Shown here in pieces: positions 15,348-53,526 of a stretch of 64,000 nucleotides of DNA. The DNA comes from an uncultured Candidatus Saccharibacteria bacterium (GTDB taxonomy: Bacteria > Patescibacteriota > Saccharimonadia > Saccharimonadales > VXPC01): assembly GCA_964534605.1 (NCBI GenBank), contig CAZHOS010000001.1, positions 39,198-103,197 on the forward strand. Direction: 5' to 3'. Within the stretch, counting starts at the first letter, position 1. Each line of letters begins with the position of its first letter. A program made the translations under genes and the position numbers. The notes under the pieces are model-generated. The model made no database searches. It saw only the letters and a list, made by a program, of their open reading frames with translations, and was not told where the DNA came from.

Positions 15348-15432
15348 TGGTGCCGTGGAAAGGACTTGAACCTTCACGCATTGCTGCACTAGTTCCTAAG
15401 ACTAGCGTGTCTACCAATTCCACCACCACGGC
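15348..15432 (-). tRNA. tRNA-Leu (anticodon UAG), CCA encoded
   Basis: Minus strand GCCGTGGTGGTGGAATTGGTAGACACGCTAGTCTTAGGAACTAGTGCAGCAATGCGTGAAGGTTCAAGTCCTTTCCACGGCACCA (85 nt). Has 7-bp acceptor stem GCCGTGG/CCACGGC, D-stem GTG/CAC and anticodon stem CTAGT/ACTAG. Anticodon loop CUUAGGA gives anticodon UAG; long variable arm; T-loop TTCAAGT. Confidence 0.9.
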
Positions 15433-46710: not shown

Positions 46711-47004
46711 CTACCTGTTGGCGTCTATGGTGTTTTGGATTGTCTCTACTATACCCCCAAATATAGGCAGCTCACCAAATAATGATAATACCCATAGAAC
46801 TGCACCTAGAACGAAAGTTGCTCCTAGGGCAGATCCTAAACCAAAGAAGATTCCGCGCACAAAATTAACGCGGTATATGCGGTGGTGCGAGCTGTAGCCG
46901 CTCTCTATAATGGTCGTTATAGCTTTGGCGGCGTCTTCTTGCTGTTTTTTACGGATTTGGCGCGTGCTTTTTTTGTCTTCTTGCTTCCAGAAAGTCAGGC
47001 CCAT
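46711..47004 (-). CDS. small membrane protein (C-terminal TM pair), hypothetical
   Basis: Start at ATG 47004 (MGLTFWKQEDKK...), 97 aa, hydrophobic C-terminal half. Separated by 1 nt from the upstream small ORF. Confidence 0.45.
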   Translation of the reverse strand: MGLTFWKQEDKKSTRQIRKKQQEDAAKAITTIIESGYSSHHRIYRVNFVRGIFFGLGSALGATFVLGAVLWVLSLFGELPIFGGIVETIQNTIDANR

Positions 47005-47005
47005 A

Positions 47006-47248
47006 CTAACCCTTTTTACCAAATTGCTCTGCCGTTGCCTTGATAATCTTGGCGATGGCAGCGGTAGTAGTAAAGTTCTTGGCAAATTTACCCGCATTGG
47101 CAGCGTTATGGGCAATATGTTCTGCTTGCTCGGCAGCTGCTTTGACGCGCTTTAGTATCTGCCAAATAGTTATAGCAATAATGATGTCGAGTATGAGCAG
47201 CGTCGCCACTATAACTAGTAAGACTGTAACTAAAAGTGAATCATCCAT
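47006..47248 (-). CDS. small single-TM protein, hypothetical
   Basis: 80 aa, N-terminal TM (LLVTVLLVIVATLLILDIIIAITIW) then an amphipathic Ala/Lys-rich helix. Confidence 0.45.
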   Translation of the reverse strand: MDDSLLVTVLLVIVATLLILDIIIAITIWQILKRVKAAAEQAEHIAHNAANAGKFAKNFTTTAAIAKIIKATAEQFGKKG

Positions 47249-47274: not shown

Positions 47275-47817
47275 CTAGTCGCCAGTAAAGGCCTTGATTA
47301 ATTTTCTTTGTTTTCGCTTTTTATAAAAGGGTATTCTGTCGACATTACGCTCAAGTAAAGCGTAGCGAGCCATGAGTTTTTTGCGCGGAATATCTGTCGG
47401 GCTAAAACGCTCTAAGGGTGAGTAGCTGCCGATTGTACCTATGCCTTCTCCGTACACACCTATATCTACTAGAGCGCCGTTAGTTGATTGATATTGGTCA
47501 CTCGTTATATCAACAACTAAAGGTTTGCCGTCTTGCCTAGCATCCTGCACCTCTACCCAAACATGTTCTTCGTCTAAGTTATCTAGGCCTATGATTCCTT
47601 CTGTAAAATACGCATTGAAGCCATGGCTGCTCAACACCCTAGATAAGAAAACACTCGATACACCACACTGGCCCCTAGAAGGAGCGTCGTTAGGCTGCAG
47701 CTCGATGCCTTGGTAGGCAGTTTCACTGTTCCAAGCTAGCTCTAATACCTGTCGCACTGCGTAAGAGAGGGCATATAAGTTAGGTTCTACTCCTGGTAAA
47801 GACTCTTTATACGACAT
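47275..47817 (-). CDS. transglutaminase-like (papain-fold) cysteine-protease-domain protein
   Basis: 180 aa. RGQCGVSSVFLSRVLSSHGFNAY (Cys), EHVWVEV (His) and VVDIT (Asp) sit in the order and spacing of the TGase-like Cys-His-Asp core. Confidence 0.5.
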   Translation of the reverse strand: MSYKESLPGVEPNLYALSYAVRQVLELAWNSETAYQGIELQPNDAPSRGQCGVSSVFLSRVLSSHGFNAYFTEGIIGLDNLDEEHVWVEVQDARQDGKPLVVDITSDQYQSTNGALVDIGVYGEGIGTIGSYSPLERFSPTDIPRKKLMARYALLERNVDRIPFYKKRKQRKLIKAFTGD

Positions 47818-47866: not shown

Positions 47867-47892
47867 AAAAAGAGCCCAAAAGGACTCTTTTC
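47867..47892 (-). terminator. rho-independent terminator after gatB
   Basis: Minus strand AAAGAGTCC-TTTT-GGGCTCTTT followed by TTGTTTTTCTATC. Confidence 0.5.
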
Positions 47893-47968: not shown

Positions 47969-49423
47969 TTATGAGAGTTCTTTTTGGATGAGCTGATTAA
48001 CGACTTTAGGGTTAGCTTTGCCCCGTGAAGCCTTCATGATCTGTCCTACTAAGAAACCGGCGGCTTTGGGGTCTGCCTTGGCATCCTCGACTGCTTTGGG
48101 GTTATCGCTCATAACTTTTTGCACTAGTATAACCAGGTCGGCTTCATCTGACATTTGTAGCAGGTCTGCTTCTTCGGCTAGCTTTAGCGGGTCGGCATTG
48201 TTTTTGATGACTGGCTTTAGAATCTCTTTAGCGTTCGTGGAGCTTAATTGGTTGCCGTCCACCATTGCAGCTAGCTTGGTGAGGCCTGTTTCTGCAGCCT
48301 CTACATCTGTCCAATCTACTTCTTGCTCCCCTACCATGCGTAGTATCTCGCCAGTACACCAGTTGGCAATTGTCTTGGCAGTTGCTGCGTCGTGTTCGTC
48401 TACTATTCTGGCCATCATACGTGCGGCAAGTGGGTTGTCTATCAGAGTCTCTAGCCCAGAGCCTTTCAGGTCTATCTTGGACAATATGGTGCGCAGATGC
48501 GCTGGCGTATGTGGGGCTAACTTGGCGATATCATTAACTTGTTGACGGCTAATGCTAAGCGGCGGAATATCCGGATCGGGCATGTAGCGGTAGTCATGCG
48601 CATCTTCTTTACTGCGCTGCGAAAAGGTCTGGCCCTTGGCGTCATCCCAGCCACGGGTCTCTTGAGCTATTGTGTTGCCGGCCTCCAGCTCTTCTATCTG
48701 CCTAGAAATCTCGAATTCGACGGCGCGCTCGACGTTCTTGAAGCTATTGAGATTCTTGGTCTCTGTGCGCGTACCAAGCTTTGAAGAATCCTTGCTAACG
48801 CTGACATTGACGTCAAAGCGTATATTCCCATGGAAAAGATCACAGTCGCTGACACCGGCATAGAGCATGGCCAGATAAAGCTCGCGGCAGTAGGCTTTGG
48901 CTTCGATAGCGCTGTGCATGTCCGGCATACTAACAATCTCTAGCAGCGGGGTACCAGCGCGGTTGAGGTCTACAAGGCTATAGTCTGCCCCGTCCGGATG
49001 GCTGAGCTTACCTGCGTCTGCTTCTAGGTGTGCCCGTTCGATATTAATTCTAAGCGGTCCATCATCAGTTGGTATGTTTAACCAACCTTCGCCTACTATT
49101 GGTTGGTCGAACTGCGATATCTGATACCCTAGCGGTAAATCTGGGTAAAAGTAGTGCTTACGATCAAATCGAGTGATTTCTGCAATCTCGGCATTAATAG
49201 CCAGGCCAGCCAAGATTGCTTTATGCACAGCCTGCTCGTTTAGGACCGGCAATGTGCCCGGTAAGCCTACGCATAGTGGACCTATGAGAGTATTGGCTGC
49301 AGCATCTTTGGCATCGTTACCGATCGCTGTGAACAGCTTAGAGACGGTATTAAACTGTACGTGGCATTCAATCCCAATGGTGGGCGTGTAGCCGTCGACT
49401 TGGTATTTGGAGAGGCTAGACAC
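47969..49423 (-). CDS. gatB: Asp-tRNA(Asn)/Glu-tRNA(Gln) amidotransferase subunit B
   Basis: 484 aa, GatB fold with C-terminal YqeY-like domain. GTG start overlaps the upstream ORF stop (TAGTG). AGGAG SD. Confidence 0.9.
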   Translation of the reverse strand: MSSLSKYQVDGYTPTIGIECHVQFNTVSKLFTAIGNDAKDAAANTLIGPLCVGLPGTLPVLNEQAVHKAILAGLAINAEIAEITRFDRKHYFYPDLPLGYQISQFDQPIVGEGWLNIPTDDGPLRINIERAHLEADAGKLSHPDGADYSLVDLNRAGTPLLEIVSMPDMHSAIEAKAYCRELYLAMLYAGVSDCDLFHGNIRFDVNVSVSKDSSKLGTRTETKNLNSFKNVERAVEFEISRQIEELEAGNTIAQETRGWDDAKGQTFSQRSKEDAHDYRYMPDPDIPPLSISRQQVNDIAKLAPHTPAHLRTILSKIDLKGSGLETLIDNPLAARMMARIVDEHDAATAKTIANWCTGEILRMVGEQEVDWTDVEAAETGLTKLAAMVDGNQLSSTNAKEILKPVIKNNADPLKLAEEADLLQMSDEADLVILVQKVMSDNPKAVEDAKADPKAAGFLVGQIMKASRGKANPKVVNQLIQKELS

Positions 49424-49827
49424 TACAAGGCTCCTAAGTCTTTTAGGGCACGGTGGAAGGCACTGAGGGCTGCTTTGGCCTGCCTTTTGCTAACCTTTAC
49501 GTCAGATTCATGGGCGATCTTGTTGCGCAGCTTATGGGCCATCCAAACATGGTCTCGCTTGCTAAACACTTTTTTGGCGCTCACCATGCGCTCGCCCATA
49601 GTCGCCCCTTTGAACTTTGATTCTTTAAGGGCTTTGTCTACTAGTTTGTCAGCCTCTAGCACAGCTAAGCTAAGGGTATCGTCAGAATTTAGATAGGTTT
49701 GGACTTTGCGCCATCGCTCGCGGTAGACCTCTACCTTTAATTTACTGCTCTTGCGGCTAAATAGCGACACAAAGCTCAGTACAGCTATACCAAAAACTGC
49801 CACAGCGATAAGTAAGGTTATTGACAT
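49423..49827 (-). CDS. membrane-anchored protein with RNxxxHE (HEPN-like) motif, inserted in the gatCAB operon
   Basis: 134 aa with N-terminal TM MSITLLIAVAVFGIAVLSFVSLF, then a helical domain ending ...WMAHKLRNKIAHESD... GAGGAGG SD inside the gatA 3' end. The start overlaps gatA by 10 nt and the stop overlaps the gatB GTG. Confidence 0.5.
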   Translation of the reverse strand: MSITLLIAVAVFGIAVLSFVSLFSRKSSKLKVEVYRERWRKVQTYLNSDDTLSLAVLEADKLVDKALKESKFKGATMGERMVSAKKVFSKRDHVWMAHKLRNKIAHESDVKVSKRQAKAALSAFHRALKDLGAL

Positions 49828-51224
49828 AAATCCTCCTCTATTTGAGCGGCGGCCGACAGAACCAGGCCGTCCTTACGCTGCTCGCTAATAATCTGTAGGC
49901 CTACTGGCATCGTTTTAGATTTAAGTGGAATACTAATTGCCGGCATGCCTGTTAAGTTAGCACCAACTGTCATGATGTCTGTCTGATACATTTTGACCGG
50001 ATCGTCTACCCTGCCGCCTATGTCAAAAGCACTAGTTGGACTTGTTGGCCCGATCAAAATATCGACACCCTCTAGTGCTGTTTCGTACTCACGGATCAAG
50101 CGAGTACGTAGGCGCTGGGCTTTTTTGTAGTATGCATCGAAGTAACCAGAGCTCAACACGTATGTACCAATCATCAACCGTCGCTGGTTCTCGGGCATAA
50201 AACCTTTGCTGCGTGTGCCAAGATACGCTTGCTCTAAACTCCCGGCGGTTTCGTCAAGATTGCCGTAGCGGATTCCATCGTAACGGCTAAGGTTACTGCT
50301 AACTTCTGCCGGCACCAGCACGTAGTAGCACGGTAGCGACAAAGCACTACTAGGGATAGAAATCTCTGTAATCGTGTGGCCCGCGGCCTTTAGGACCTTA
50401 ATAGATGCGTCGAAAGCGTCCGCGACGTCTTTGTCTAGCCCCTGTGTGTATTCCTTTATAACGCCGATTTTGAGGTTTTTAGCATCAGTAATCTGGCAAA
50501 TTATCTGGGAAGAATCCAGCGTTGTACCGTCGAGTGGGTCTCTCCCCCTTAGAATCTCCATTAGATAGCTGGCATCAGTTGCGCTGCTACTGATTGGACC
50601 TATACAGTCGGTGCTGCTAGCCATGGCTACTACACCGTAACGAGATACTAATCCATATGTAGGCTTGTAGCCTACGACACCGCAAAAGCTGGCCGGCTGA
50701 CGAATAGACCCGCCTGTGTCCGAGCCTAGAGCAAAGGGTACGATACCAGCCGCCACTGCAGCCGCAGAGCCACCGCTACTCCCGCCGGGCACCTTGGTAG
50801 TGTTGTGAGGGTTCTTGGTAGGTCCATAAAAGCTGTTCTCGGTACTGCCGCCGTGAGCAAAGGCGTCCAAATTAACCTTGCCTATAAGGATGGCATCTTC
50901 ATCAAGAACCTTCTGTAGACTTGTGGCCGTAATTGGCGAGGAGAAGTTGCTGAGGATATCGGCTGCAGCTGTTGTCTTGCCATATGCATAGAGGAAGTTG
51001 TCCTTAGCCGCAAAAGGTACACCAGCCAACTTACCTAACTTGTCACCTTTAGCAACACGAGCATCAATGTTTTTGGCCTGTTCTAACGCCTGCTCTTTGA
51101 ATATTTCTAGAAAAATATTGAGCTCTATTGACTTTGCAGCCTTGTCTAACGCGTCTTGCACCAGAGCCACACTGCTAGTGTGACCTCCACGAACGTCGTC
51201 TGCTAGTTGCTTGATAGACTTCAT
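49818..51224 (-). CDS. gatA: Glu-tRNA(Gln) amidotransferase subunit A
   Basis: 468 aa; amidase signature GGSSGGSAAAVAAG. Start overlaps the gatC stop (TAATG). Confidence 0.9.
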   Translation of the reverse strand: MKSIKQLADDVRGGHTSSVALVQDALDKAAKSIELNIFLEIFKEQALEQAKNIDARVAKGDKLGKLAGVPFAAKDNFLYAYGKTTAAADILSNFSSPITATSLQKVLDEDAILIGKVNLDAFAHGGSTENSFYGPTKNPHNTTKVPGGSSGGSAAAVAAGIVPFALGSDTGGSIRQPASFCGVVGYKPTYGLVSRYGVVAMASSTDCIGPISSSATDASYLMEILRGRDPLDGTTLDSSQIICQITDAKNLKIGVIKEYTQGLDKDVADAFDASIKVLKAAGHTITEISIPSSALSLPCYYVLVPAEVSSNLSRYDGIRYGNLDETAGSLEQAYLGTRSKGFMPENQRRLMIGTYVLSSGYFDAYYKKAQRLRTRLIREYETALEGVDILIGPTSPTSAFDIGGRVDDPVKMYQTDIMTVGANLTGMPAISIPLKSKTMPVGLQIISEQRKDGLVLSAAAQIEEDLCQ

Positions 51225-51552: not shown

Positions 51553-53526
51553 CTAGTCAATTTTTGATCTTAATTGATCTATTTGGTCGCGAAGGTCGGC
51601 AGCTTTCTCGAACTCTAGGTTGGCAGCATGTAAGTGCATTTGGCTCTCTAGCTGCTTAATAAGCTTGGGTATCTCGTCTTCTGGAATGCTTTTAATGTCT
51701 TTTTGGAAAGCCTTGCGGGCTTTGTCGTCTTTGCTCTCGCCCTTTGGCATGGCACTCTCGATTGCGCGCTTAATGCTCTCTGGCGTTATACCGTTATCTT
51801 TGTTGTGTTGCTCCTGGATAGTGCGGCGGCGCTCGGTTTCGCCTATTGCGCGCTCCATGCTGCCGGTTATCTTGTCCGCATACATCAGCACACGGCCTTC
51901 CTGGTGACGGGCTGCACGGCCAATAGTTTGCACTAGCGCCTGTTCGCTACGCAGGAAACCCTCTTTGTCGGCGTCCAGGATAGCAACCAGACTTACCTCC
52001 GGCAGATCGAGACCCTCGCGGAGCAAGTTAATGCCAATAAGTACGTCGTACACACCTAGTCGCAGATCACGTAGGATATCACTACGCTCTAGCGTGTCGA
52101 CATCGCTGTGCAGATATTGGACTTTTATATCTAGCTCTTGCAGGTATTCGCTAAGATCCTCTGACATACGCTTGGTAAGTGTCGTAACCAATACGCGCTG
52201 GCCATTATCTATAGTGGTGCGGATCTCGGCAATCAGATCGTCTATCTGGCCGTCTATTGGACGAACCTCGATCTTGGGATCCAGCAGTCCAGTTGGGCGG
52301 ATAATCTGCTGGGCCGGTTCGGGACTGCGCTGGAGCTCGTAGTCAGCTGGCGTAGCCGAGACGTATACAACCTGGTTTACGTGCTTTTGAAATTCGTCAA
52401 AATTAAGCGGACGGTTATCCAAGGCGCTTGGCAAGCGGAAGCCATGGTCGACAAGCACCTGTTTACGTGCTCTGTCGCCGTTATACATACCGCGCAGCTG
52501 CGGTATGGTCATGTGGCTCTCGTCGATAAACATTAAGAAGTCGTCTGGGAAGTAATCTATCAGCGTGGCAGGCTGCTCGCCCTCCTCGCGGTTGGTAAGG
52601 TAGCGCGAGTAATTCTCGATGCCCTTCACGAAGCCTGTCTCTTGCAGCATTTCTAGGTCGAAGTTTGTGCGCTGCGTAAGGCGCTGCGACTCCAGGATCA
52701 TATTCTGGGCTTCGAACCACTGAGATCTGTGGGCTAGCTCGTTTTCTATCATGGGGATAGCCGCCTTGAGCTTGTCGTAAGGCGTTACGTAGTGTGATCC
52801 TGGAAAAATAGTTAGATCATCTAGCTTGGCCTCGATCTCGCCGGTAAGTGGATTGATGCGCACAATACGCTCGATCTCGTAGCCGAAGAACTCTATACGG
52901 TAGGCGACCTCCTCACTGGCCGGGTAAACATCGACGACGTCGCCCTTTACGCGGAAGACTCCACGGGCAAAGTCAATGTCGTTACGTTGATACTGAATAT
53001 CTGTTAGGTGGCGGATAAATTTGTCGCGTATTTTGCGCTCGCCTACCTTTAGCTTAATGCTAAGCCCTTCGTAGTCCTCGACCGAACCTATACCGTAAAT
53101 ACAACTTACGCTGGCAACTATCAGCACGTCTTTGCGGGATAACAATGCGTCGGTGGCAGCGTGGCGTAGGCGCTGGATCTCTTCGTTAATGTCGCTGTCT
53201 TTTTCGATATATGTATCCGACCTGGCGACATAGGCCTCTGGTTGGTAATAGTCAAAGTAGCTAACAAAGTAGTGCACAGCGTTGTTTGGGAAGAAAGCTT
53301 TAAACTCGTTATACAGTTGGGCCGCCAATGTCTTGTTATGTACCAGCACCAGCGTGGGTTTCTGCACCTGTTGCACGACGTTGGCGATCGAAAATGTCTT
53401 ACCTGTGCCAGTTGCACCTAACAGTACCTGCTCTTTTAGGCCGTTATTGATACCATGCACCATCTGCTTAATGGCCGATGGCTGATCACCTGCAGGCTTA
53501 TAGCCACTTGTTAACTCGAACTTCAT
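51553..53526 (-). CDS. uvrB: excinuclease ABC subunit B
   Basis: 657 aa with helicase motifs, beta-hairpin region and the C-terminal UvrC-interaction coiled coil ([22 protein letters not shown]). Confidence 0.95.

Follow-up and report, generated by a model that had tools for sequence, protein, structure and literature searches.

A predicted membrane-anchored HEPN-like protein family encoded next to gatA in Saccharibacteria and other Patescibacteria

To our knowledge, bacterial HEPN nucleases are known almost solely from conflict systems, i.e. toxin-antitoxin and abortive infection systems, CRISPR effectors and retrons. Here, we analyse a 64,000-nucleotide (nt) stretch of contig CAZHOS010000001.1 (assembly GCA_964534605.1, positions 39,198 to 103,197) from an uncultured Candidatus Saccharibacteria bacterium, in the following called the window, in which a small open reading frame (ORF) lies between gatA and gatB; we use the label X for this gene and its protein. 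GatCAB corrects mischarged Gln/Asn tRNAs. X is predicted to carry a HEPN-like domain behind an N-terminal membrane anchor, and we find its gene directly after gatA across the Patescibacteria, or Candidate Phyla Radiation (CPR), a radiation comprising a large share of bacterial diversity.

HEPN domains are defined by an Rx4-6H motif located where helix 3 ends or the loop to helix 4 begins; the Arg is followed by a polar residue (N/D/H), and helix 2 has a conserved acidic residue near the motif (PMC3710099). In this survey of HEPN domains from 2013 three membrane-associated groups are distinguished, none of them in a gatCAB context, and the word 'amidotransferase' is absent from it. HepT toxins show the motif RX4HXY, the Tyr of which is AMPylated by MNT (PMC11586414). 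The published counterpart of X is SEML1_0535 of Southlakia epibionticum, a 420-nt gene encoding a 'hypothetical protein' of 139 amino acids (aa) between GatA (SEML1_0536), with which it overlaps by 4 nt, and GatB (SEML1_0534), the overlaps resembling those in the window (PMC10633639, Tables S1/S2); it is a counterpart by position, size and annotation, and among the loci we fetched none matched the Southlakia locus in exact length. SEML1_0535 is scored 1 for both 'is core family' and 'is Patescibacteria enriched', has no Pfam match and carries the ProtNLM language-model label 'DUF4145 domain-containing protein' (score 0.98), while DPAM puts its residues 26-135 in ECOD e1wtyA1, a HEPN-type fold. 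In transposon sequencing (Tn-seq) its hidden Markov model calls are GD, GD and ES, the number of insertions dropping to 5, 3 and 1 compared to 8 in the input (PMC10633639). The main text of this study (Wang et al. 2023, Cell) mentions neither HEPN nor gatA or gatB, SEML1_0535 appearing in the supplementary tables alone. Its Table S1 also lists SEML1_0171, a stand-alone GatB/YqeY-domain protein of Southlakia being Patescibacteria-enriched and essential in Tn-seq, i.e. a tRNA-amidation-related orphan.

Our literature search returned no paper tying HEPN or DUF4145 to gatCAB or Patescibacteria. HEPN domains, architectures combining a transmembrane helix with HEPN and a HEPN-type fold label for one putative X ortholog in a supplement are already known. 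Relative to the literature found, new are X as a distinct, very large Patescibacteria family encoded nearly always immediately behind gatA, whether or not gatB follows, the co-divergence of X and GatA, the addition of D60 and H98 to the Rx4H site and a clade that has lost the motif.

Linkage of X to gatA

A preliminary description of the window had reported a 134-aa ORF between gatA and gatB on the minus strand, and this ORF is present as described (Table 1). At the gatA/X junction (minus strand: CAAATAGAGGAGGATTTATGTCAATAA) the gatA 3' end overlaps the X start by 10 nt, with the Shine-Dalgarno sequence GAGGAGG placed in the last gatA codons 4 nt before the X ATG (49825-49827). At the X/gatB junction (minus strand: AGGAGCCTTGTAGTG) the X stop codon TAG (49423-49425) shares its G with the gatB start codon GTG (49421-49423), resulting in a TAGTG overlap of stop and start with AGGAG 7 nt upstream. 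Overlaps and Shine-Dalgarno sequences are read directly from the sequence and agree with the preliminary description. Terminator-like hairpins were found on the minus strand solely after gatB and none inside gatC to gatB. This layout shows X, GatC and GatA, in Saccharibacteria together with GatB, as predicted products of one mRNA being translationally coupled, as had been claimed.

The arrangement is conserved far beyond the window. We fetched 84 Saccharimonadia loci, consisting of GTDB species representatives and metagenome contigs, and every contig spanning both neighbours of X has the order gatC-gatA-X-gatB. Between the gatA stop and the X start there are -16 to +4 nt in 75 of 76 loci, and between the X stop and the gatB start -17 to +4 nt in 67 of 76. 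For a second scan we used divergent X seeds, the first one from Candidatus Portnoybacteria, and picked 80 metagenome loci by X similarity alone. In these Parcubacteria-type loci gatA is directly upstream of X in 70-71 of 80 (approximately 90%), with 5 contigs being too short to tell, and a same-strand gatB downstream of X was found in none of the 80. The gene following X varies (radical SAM, lgt, DsbA-like, PKD and others), and outside Saccharibacteria we found no conserved downstream partner, the 65 downstream ORFs splitting into many small unrelated clusters. Falkowbacteria and Uhrbacteria have the order gatC-gatA-X, often with ligA ahead, as has a complete Patescibacteria chromosome of 1.17 Mb, and named Portnoybacteria likewise show the gatA-X placement.

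The pairwise distances of X and GatA correlate across 111 non-redundant loci (Mantel r 0.79, p 0.001) and also inside the two locus groups (r 0.75 and 0.71), with X being the faster-evolving protein (mean p-distance 0.63 versus 0.46 for GatA). Adjacency and co-divergence together support that the conserved unit is gatA followed by X and that this unit is vertically inherited; it predates the split of Saccharimonadia and Parcubacteria-type lineages. The preliminary description had regarded X as an insertion into a normally contiguous gatCAB operon and had suggested surveying related loci. This survey shows the ORF conserved after gatA in Saccharimonadia and most Parcubacteria-type loci, and the notion of an insertion has to be given up, the gatA-X adjacency being ancestral and conserved across Patescibacteria with X co-diverging with GatA. 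A recent insertion or horizontal acquisition is rejected in view of the GC content of the X ORF (0.477), which is similar to that of its neighbours (0.495-0.503), and of the phylum-wide conserved adjacency.

In a word-indexed search we identified 154 X homologues, all having a length of 131-149 aa and the named ones belonging to Candidatus Saccharibacteria. When 1.84 billion cluster representatives were searched exhaustively with a profile, 3,154 clusters (50% identity) were obtained at E<=0.001 and 2,387 at E<=1e-10. X is more than a chance ORF, since it has 154 homologues, 3,154 clusters and several invariant columns. Named members are from Portnoybacteria, Falkowbacteria, Uhrbacteria, Parcubacteria, Saccharibacteria and the 'Patescibacteria group', and none of the family records has a Pfam domain or a name beyond 'hypothetical protein'. 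Two X records bear labels from outside the CPR, i.e. 'Bacteriovoracaceae bacterium UBA2394' (DDSI01000195.1, locus L043) and 'Verrucomicrobiae bacterium' (P0369). L043 is a CPR-like contig matching the window genes with coordinates and identities identical to those of the Saccharibacteria contig L077, which points to probable mis-binning and not to an occurrence outside Patescibacteria. With X as the query, tblastn searches of 72,556 plasmids and of 50,697 phage records (E<=0.01) were both without a match.

As X shares its predicted mRNA with gatC and gatA, is translationally coupled and keeps its adjacency to gatA across the radiation, we read it as a dedicated partner of GatCAB. We consider it moderately probable that X is such a partner of the tRNA-dependent amidotransferase, most likely a membrane-tethered ribonuclease (RNase) or RNA-binding module, and neither a toxin nor a defence gene. 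Improbable in our view is that X acts as a general housekeeping RNase of Patescibacteria, which would be anchored in the membrane, serve to degrade or process RNA and have RNase Y or the KEN domain of Ire1 as functional analogues, and merely shares the gatCA transcript. Such a role would fit the core, Patescibacteria-enriched family with its Tn-seq-depleted counterpart, the few loci having X away from gatA, the fact that RNA-processing genes elsewhere ride in translation-related operons and the combination of an anchor with a cytoplasmic HEPN domain, an architecture proposed for membrane RNA processing (PMC3710099, section 15). However, the adjacency is specific for gatA, it outlasts the loss of gatB from the neighbourhood and a full turnover of the downstream genes, and the overlapping stop and start codons are maintained; hitchhiking alone rarely preserves one gene pair at approximately 45-50% GatA identity.

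Fold, conserved residues and topology of X

Full-length X was modelled by AlphaFold2 (AF2) using a 38-sequence alignment with a predicted local distance difference test (pLDDT) score of 91.3. The predicted helices comprise residues 3-23, 32-47, 49-69, 77-83, 91-106 and 114-131, with a short linker after the first. Modelled alone, the soluble domain reached a pLDDT of 96.3 and a predicted template modelling score (pTM) of 0.88. Model and hydropathy bear out the single N-terminal transmembrane helix and the helical domain of approximately 100 aa that had been described before, and the domain is predicted as an all-alpha up-down bundle of HEPN type, its best PDB matches being HEPN. In a Foldseek search against 350,542 PDB chains 11 of the 12 best matches of the soluble domain are HEPN domains with probabilities of 0.9-1.0. 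These include the HepT toxins 7ae6, 8xeh, 8xdj, 8yuf, 5yep and 7bxo with query-normalised template modelling (TM) scores of 0.62-0.67 and root-mean-square deviations of 3.4-3.9 Å, and the HEPN structures 2hsb, 1wty and 4nqf with TM-scores of 0.45-0.58; generic or unrelated helical bundles score 0.2-0.45. The structure 1wty is common to the X Foldseek matches and the DPAM assignment of SEML1_0535.

On the level of profiles, the sole statistically significant match of X is the PADLOC model CARF2--CARF_HEPN (E 6.5e-6), in which residues 34-115 of the window X align to positions 279-359 of 382, i.e. the HEPN part. Among 38 X members sub-threshold Pfam matches were obtained to RiboL-PSP (14/38), Swt1 (10/38) and Ymh (5/38), all being HEPN families. 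The X family consensus matches HEPN_Swt1 over nearly the whole domain with E 0.0022 and 18.7 bits at a gathering score of 27.5. RiboL-PSP reached 16.1 bits (gathering score 28.4) and Ymh 15.2 bits (gathering score 25). PDB sequence searches with X and the family profile gave noise alone (S20, RanGAP, FadB, E>0.05), a search of NCBIfam with X gave no usable match, and Pfam/NCBIfam scans found no homology of X to GatC, GatF, GatB or YqeY. The outcome of the profile comparison that had been suggested for this ORF is divided, the PADLOC match speaking for HEPN and the Pfam HEPN families staying below threshold with no match to DUF86. All in all, the soluble domain of X is very probably a HEPN domain, and the X family is a separate one within HEPN, captured by no Pfam or NCBIfam model.

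We counted residue conservation over 275 X members with identities down to approximately 30%. D60, G74 and H98 are kept in all 275 members, W95 in 271, R101 in 268, N102 in 265, H106 in 262 and R80 in 260, and position 107 is E/D in 266. In the AF2 model the stretch R101-N102-K-I-A-H106 (contained in AHKLRNKIAHES, residues 97-108) ends the helix comprising residues 91-106 and is followed by a loop (107-113). H98 precedes R101 by one helical turn and H106 by two, which places these residues on the same face of the helix. D60 and D64, the latter present in 94% of the members, are both located in helix 49-69, and D60 matches by position the conserved helix-2 acidic residue of HEPN domains (PMC3710099). 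Judged from sequence and model, X shows the complete signature of active HEPN RNases, consisting of R-N-x3-H and the helix-2 Asp, plus an extra invariant His.

The predicted structure, the fold search, the matches to profiles and the position of the motif agree in making the RNxxxH motif part of a HEPN-fold domain, as the preliminary description had surmised. The opposite view, i.e. that X is an unrelated small membrane protein carrying RNxxxH by chance, has a negligible probability. A single R[ND]xxxH can arise by chance in 134 aa and no Pfam family is reached at threshold, but the motif is near-invariant over thousands of clusters and both fold and profile point to HEPN. Cluster count, conservation and the Foldseek and PADLOC matches refute this view, and the fallback of an unrelated, lineage-specific small membrane protein falls with it in the light of thousands of clusters, a conserved motif and HEPN fold and profile matches.

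The best 19-mer of the N-terminal helix has a mean Kyte-Doolittle value of 2.78, and the sequence of this helix is poorly conserved across the family alignment. Being hydrophobic but poorly conserved, it looks like a plain anchor. In 255 family members the 12 residues flanking the helix contain on average 0.15 K+R before and 3.31 after it, and by the positive-inside rule the C-terminal domain is placed in the cytoplasm for 98.8% of them, suggesting that it faces the cytoplasm. In two loci, L153 and L158, the longest ORF adds an N-terminal extension of approximately 75 residues before the transmembrane helix, if the first start codon is used.

Concerning the surrounding genes, the region 3' of gatB on the minus strand encodes a 180-aa YunG/transglutaminase-like ORF (47275-47817), an 80-aa transmembrane protein (47006-47248) and a DUF5665 protein (46711-47115). 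In several other Saccharibacteria loci an NTP_transferase gene comes first after gatB, followed by YtxH, DUF5665 and dnaE; the cluster of small membrane proteins downstream of gatB is conserved, and its first gene is swapped in the window. A tRNA-Leu (15348-15432, minus strand) is the sole tRNA and the sole Rfam family match in the window. Elsewhere, the complete genome CP129476.1 has a 197-aa ORF with no Pfam match between gatA and X (L175, 2892-3485), and in several Parcubacteria-type loci envelope genes follow X, either lgt, which overlaps the X stop, or a DsbA/thioredoxin-like gene. The latter may be due to chance or hint at a membrane-related neighbourhood.

Table 1. Coordinates of X, its sequence elements and neighbouring genes (window positions, except for the last four lines, which refer to the loci named)
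Feature	Position	Strand	Basis
X, 134-aa single-pass membrane protein with C-terminal HEPN-like domain, ATG start	49423..49827	minus	ORF, homologues, AF2 model
Predicted N-terminal transmembrane helix of X, residues ~3-23, predicted N-out/C-in	49759..49821	minus	DSSP helix 3-23; Kyte-Doolittle
Predicted cytoplasmic HEPN-like helical bundle of X, residues 30-134	49426..49740	minus	AF2, Foldseek, PADLOC, Pfam consensus match
R101-N-K-I-A-H106-E107, Rx4H HEPN signature, C-terminal end of helix 3	49507..49527	minus	sequence
H98, invariant second His, one helical turn before R101	49534..49536	minus	275/275
D60, invariant acidic residue in helix 2 (xADKLLDxALK)	49648..49650	minus	275/275
GAGGAGG Shine-Dalgarno sequence of X, within gatA 3' end	49832..49838	minus	sequence
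AGGAG Shine-Dalgarno sequence of gatB, within X 3' end	49431..49435	minus	sequence
gatC, 97 aa	51224..51517	minus	PF02686 3.4e-13; TIGR00135 4.8e-17
gatA, 468 aa	49818..51224	minus	Pfam Amidase 1.5e-128; TIGR00132 gatA 3e-159
gatB, 484 aa, GTG start	47969..49423	minus	GatB_N 5.8e-107; GatB_Yqey 3.4e-36; NF004012 1.7e-163
Terminator-like hairpin, 11 bp + T-run, 3' of gatB, closing the gatC-gatA-X-gatB unit	47867..47892	minus	
uvrB, upstream of gatC	51553..53526		
Envelope gene after X, L089	632-1381		
Envelope gene after X, L089	2323-3018		
Envelope gene after X, L175	3959-4771		
Envelope gene after X, L176	4031-4924		

Possible roles beside the amidotransferase

For the preferred reading of X as a dedicated GatCAB partner we propose a model according to which X is held at the membrane by its N-terminal anchor with the HEPN domain facing the cytoplasm. 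It would dimerise as other HEPN RNases do and cleave or bind RNA without a metal, acting as an endoribonuclease or RNA-binding module, and would work with GatCAB on tRNA or another RNA tied to Gln/Asn-tRNA formation. RNase activity, GatCAB interaction, dimerisation and substrate are thus what we infer for X. The HEPN enzymes PrrC and RloC target tRNA (PMC3710099), type VII HEPN toxins are implicated in tRNA digestion (PMC11586414), and Cas13 has been described as a further tRNA-targeting HEPN enzyme. Since tRNA is the target of many HEPN enzymes and the end of tRNAGln/tRNAAsn handled by GatCAB is the aminoacylated one, a tRNA-directed activity in the indirect pathway would be the most economical guess, speculative as it is.

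Several points weigh against a catalytic HEPN partner of GatCAB. HEPN domains can be non-catalytic binding modules, and the RNase role of X is a prediction. The Foldseek E-values are weak (0.03-0.2), owing to the query being a 105-residue helical bundle, for which this is usual, and X, the 38 members and the family consensus all stay below the gathering scores of the Pfam HEPN families. X lies away from gatA in approximately 5% of the distant loci (L100, L153 and L158 in the 80-locus scan, L085 in an earlier look-up). Polarity on the essential gatB may account for the depletion of SEML1_0535 in Tn-seq. Furthermore, a small clade (P0201, P0203, P0207, P0209 and P0235; also P0170; loci L170-L173) has lost R/N/H, reading for example HNLAKKLKNT (P0209), HNLAKKILED (P0235) or HKLRSKLDD (P0203), and keeps D60, G74, W95 and H98; these members are possibly pseudo-enzyme versions. 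The RX4H residues are reported to be dispensable for RNase activity in HepT of L. pneumophila (PMC11586414), so that the Rx4H motif is no guarantee of a classical mechanism, which fits the motif-lost clade.

Three motif-lost members that we checked are still located in the overlapping gatC-gatA-X-gatB slot, supporting that selection acts in part on a function for which the Rx4H residues are not needed and keeping alive a role of X as chiefly a binding or tethering subunit. Possible, though doubtful, is accordingly a non-catalytic accessory subunit, the HEPN-like bundle of which would anchor GatCA(B) or a tRNA substrate complex to the inner membrane face with Rx4H serving in binding. Besides the slot with its overlapping junctions being kept by members lacking R/N/H, the stricter conservation of D60, G74 and H98 (275/275) compared to the Rx4H residues speaks for a tether, as does the general comparative-genomics principle that genes with such a deeply conserved order typically encode products interacting physically. 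Non-catalytic HEPN domains are also well known, e.g. as substrate-binding domains of nucleotidyltransferases (PMC3710099). In contrast, 95-97% of the members retain R101, N102 and H106 while otherwise being only approximately 30% identical, a pattern expected of catalytic residues, the motif is placed exactly as in active HEPN RNases, and a GatA-binding surface on X would be purely postulated.

Returning to X as an RNase or RNA-binding partner of GatCAB, a more specific and unlikely version would make it a fourth, Patescibacteria-specific component of the transamidosome, i.e. a membrane-anchored HEPN RNase binding GatA and acting in quality control of the indirect pathway. X might then clip the acceptor end or the anticodon loop of unamidated Glu-tRNAGln/Asp-tRNAAsn or, alternatively, gate the tRNA supply to amide-donor availability at the membrane. 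If this were true, X would be the first essential housekeeping HEPN nuclease wired into bacterial aminoacyl-tRNA synthesis, and were X to prove a mere tether, it would be without precedent among bacterial amidotransferases as a membrane-associated accessory factor. More generally, an active RNase working with GatCAB would reveal, for ultrasmall and host-dependent bacteria, a new level at which tRNA is quality-controlled or regulated and would provide a function for one 'Patescibacteria-enriched, essential, unknown' family. Saccharibacteria are now genetically tractable, so that the hypothesis on X is directly testable.

Comparison with described HEPN systems

The HepT/DUF86 toxins of type VII HEPN-MNT systems are the best structural matches of X and share with it a small all-helical bundle of similar size with Rx4H at the helix-3/loop position. 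X differs in having an N-terminal transmembrane anchor and in being a core vertical gene in a translation operon and not part of a mobile toxin-antitoxin pair. It reads RNKIAHES and shows no conserved Tyr at H+2 in the alignments; lacking the Tyr of RX4HXY after the His, X has no AMPylation site. We found no MNT or antitoxin gene next to X in approximately 170 loci, the neighbours being gatA and gatB or variable genes, and no Pfam DUF86 match for X and the 38 aligned members.

This comparison bears on a HEPN toxin or defence effector, of type VII toxin-antitoxin-like or abortive infection type, having been captured by the operon, which we regard as very improbable. The closest solved structures are HepT toxins and the best profile match is a CRISPR-associated CARF-HEPN model, but X has neither an MNT or antitoxin neighbour in the approximately 170 loci nor the Tyr of RX4HXY (H-E-S instead) nor a CARF domain, it is inherited vertically with GatA, near-universal and single-copy in its position, and tblastn gave no plasmid or phage match. 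The preliminary description had raised a toxin co-opted into the operon; with these hallmarks missing and the inheritance being vertical, this proposal is not upheld, and X as a dedicated amidotransferase partner is preferred.

The membrane-associated HEPN groups of Anantharaman et al. 2013, i.e. a transmembrane helix combined with a DUF4145-like domain with WP signature or with an Abi2/Swt1-like domain, share with X the single transmembrane helix and a cytoplasmic, predicted-active HEPN domain, and the best Pfam match of X, albeit weak, is Swt1-like, akin to the second group. In contrast to these, X has no WP in its transmembrane helix and no extracellular or extra domain, and its context is gatCA(B) and not restriction-modification or signalling. 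PF13643 (DUF4145) is absent both from the matches listed at E<=1 for the singly scanned sequences and from the 25 families commonest in the 38 members. Compared to the CARF-HEPN effectors Csx1/Csm6, X matches the HEPN region of the model only, has approximately one third of the size and has neither a CARF sensor nor a CRISPR context. We accept X as a very probable member of the HEPN superfamily, standing outside HepT/DUF86, DUF4145 and CARF-HEPN.

As a summary, the HEPN domain of X behaves as a core gene, being vertical, radiation-wide and tied by gene order and coupling to the essential Gln-tRNA/Asn-tRNA enzyme, which makes X one of the rare bacterial HEPN proteins that may have a housekeeping role. 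As a working analogy, RNase Y and Ire1 KEN represent RNases at the membrane with the active site in the cytoplasm; X is far smaller and has neither homology to RNase Y (KH/HD) nor a kinase/sensor domain of Ire1 type. In eukaryotic Ire1 the KEN domain, too, is a HEPN domain and serves a core cellular role (PMC3710099).

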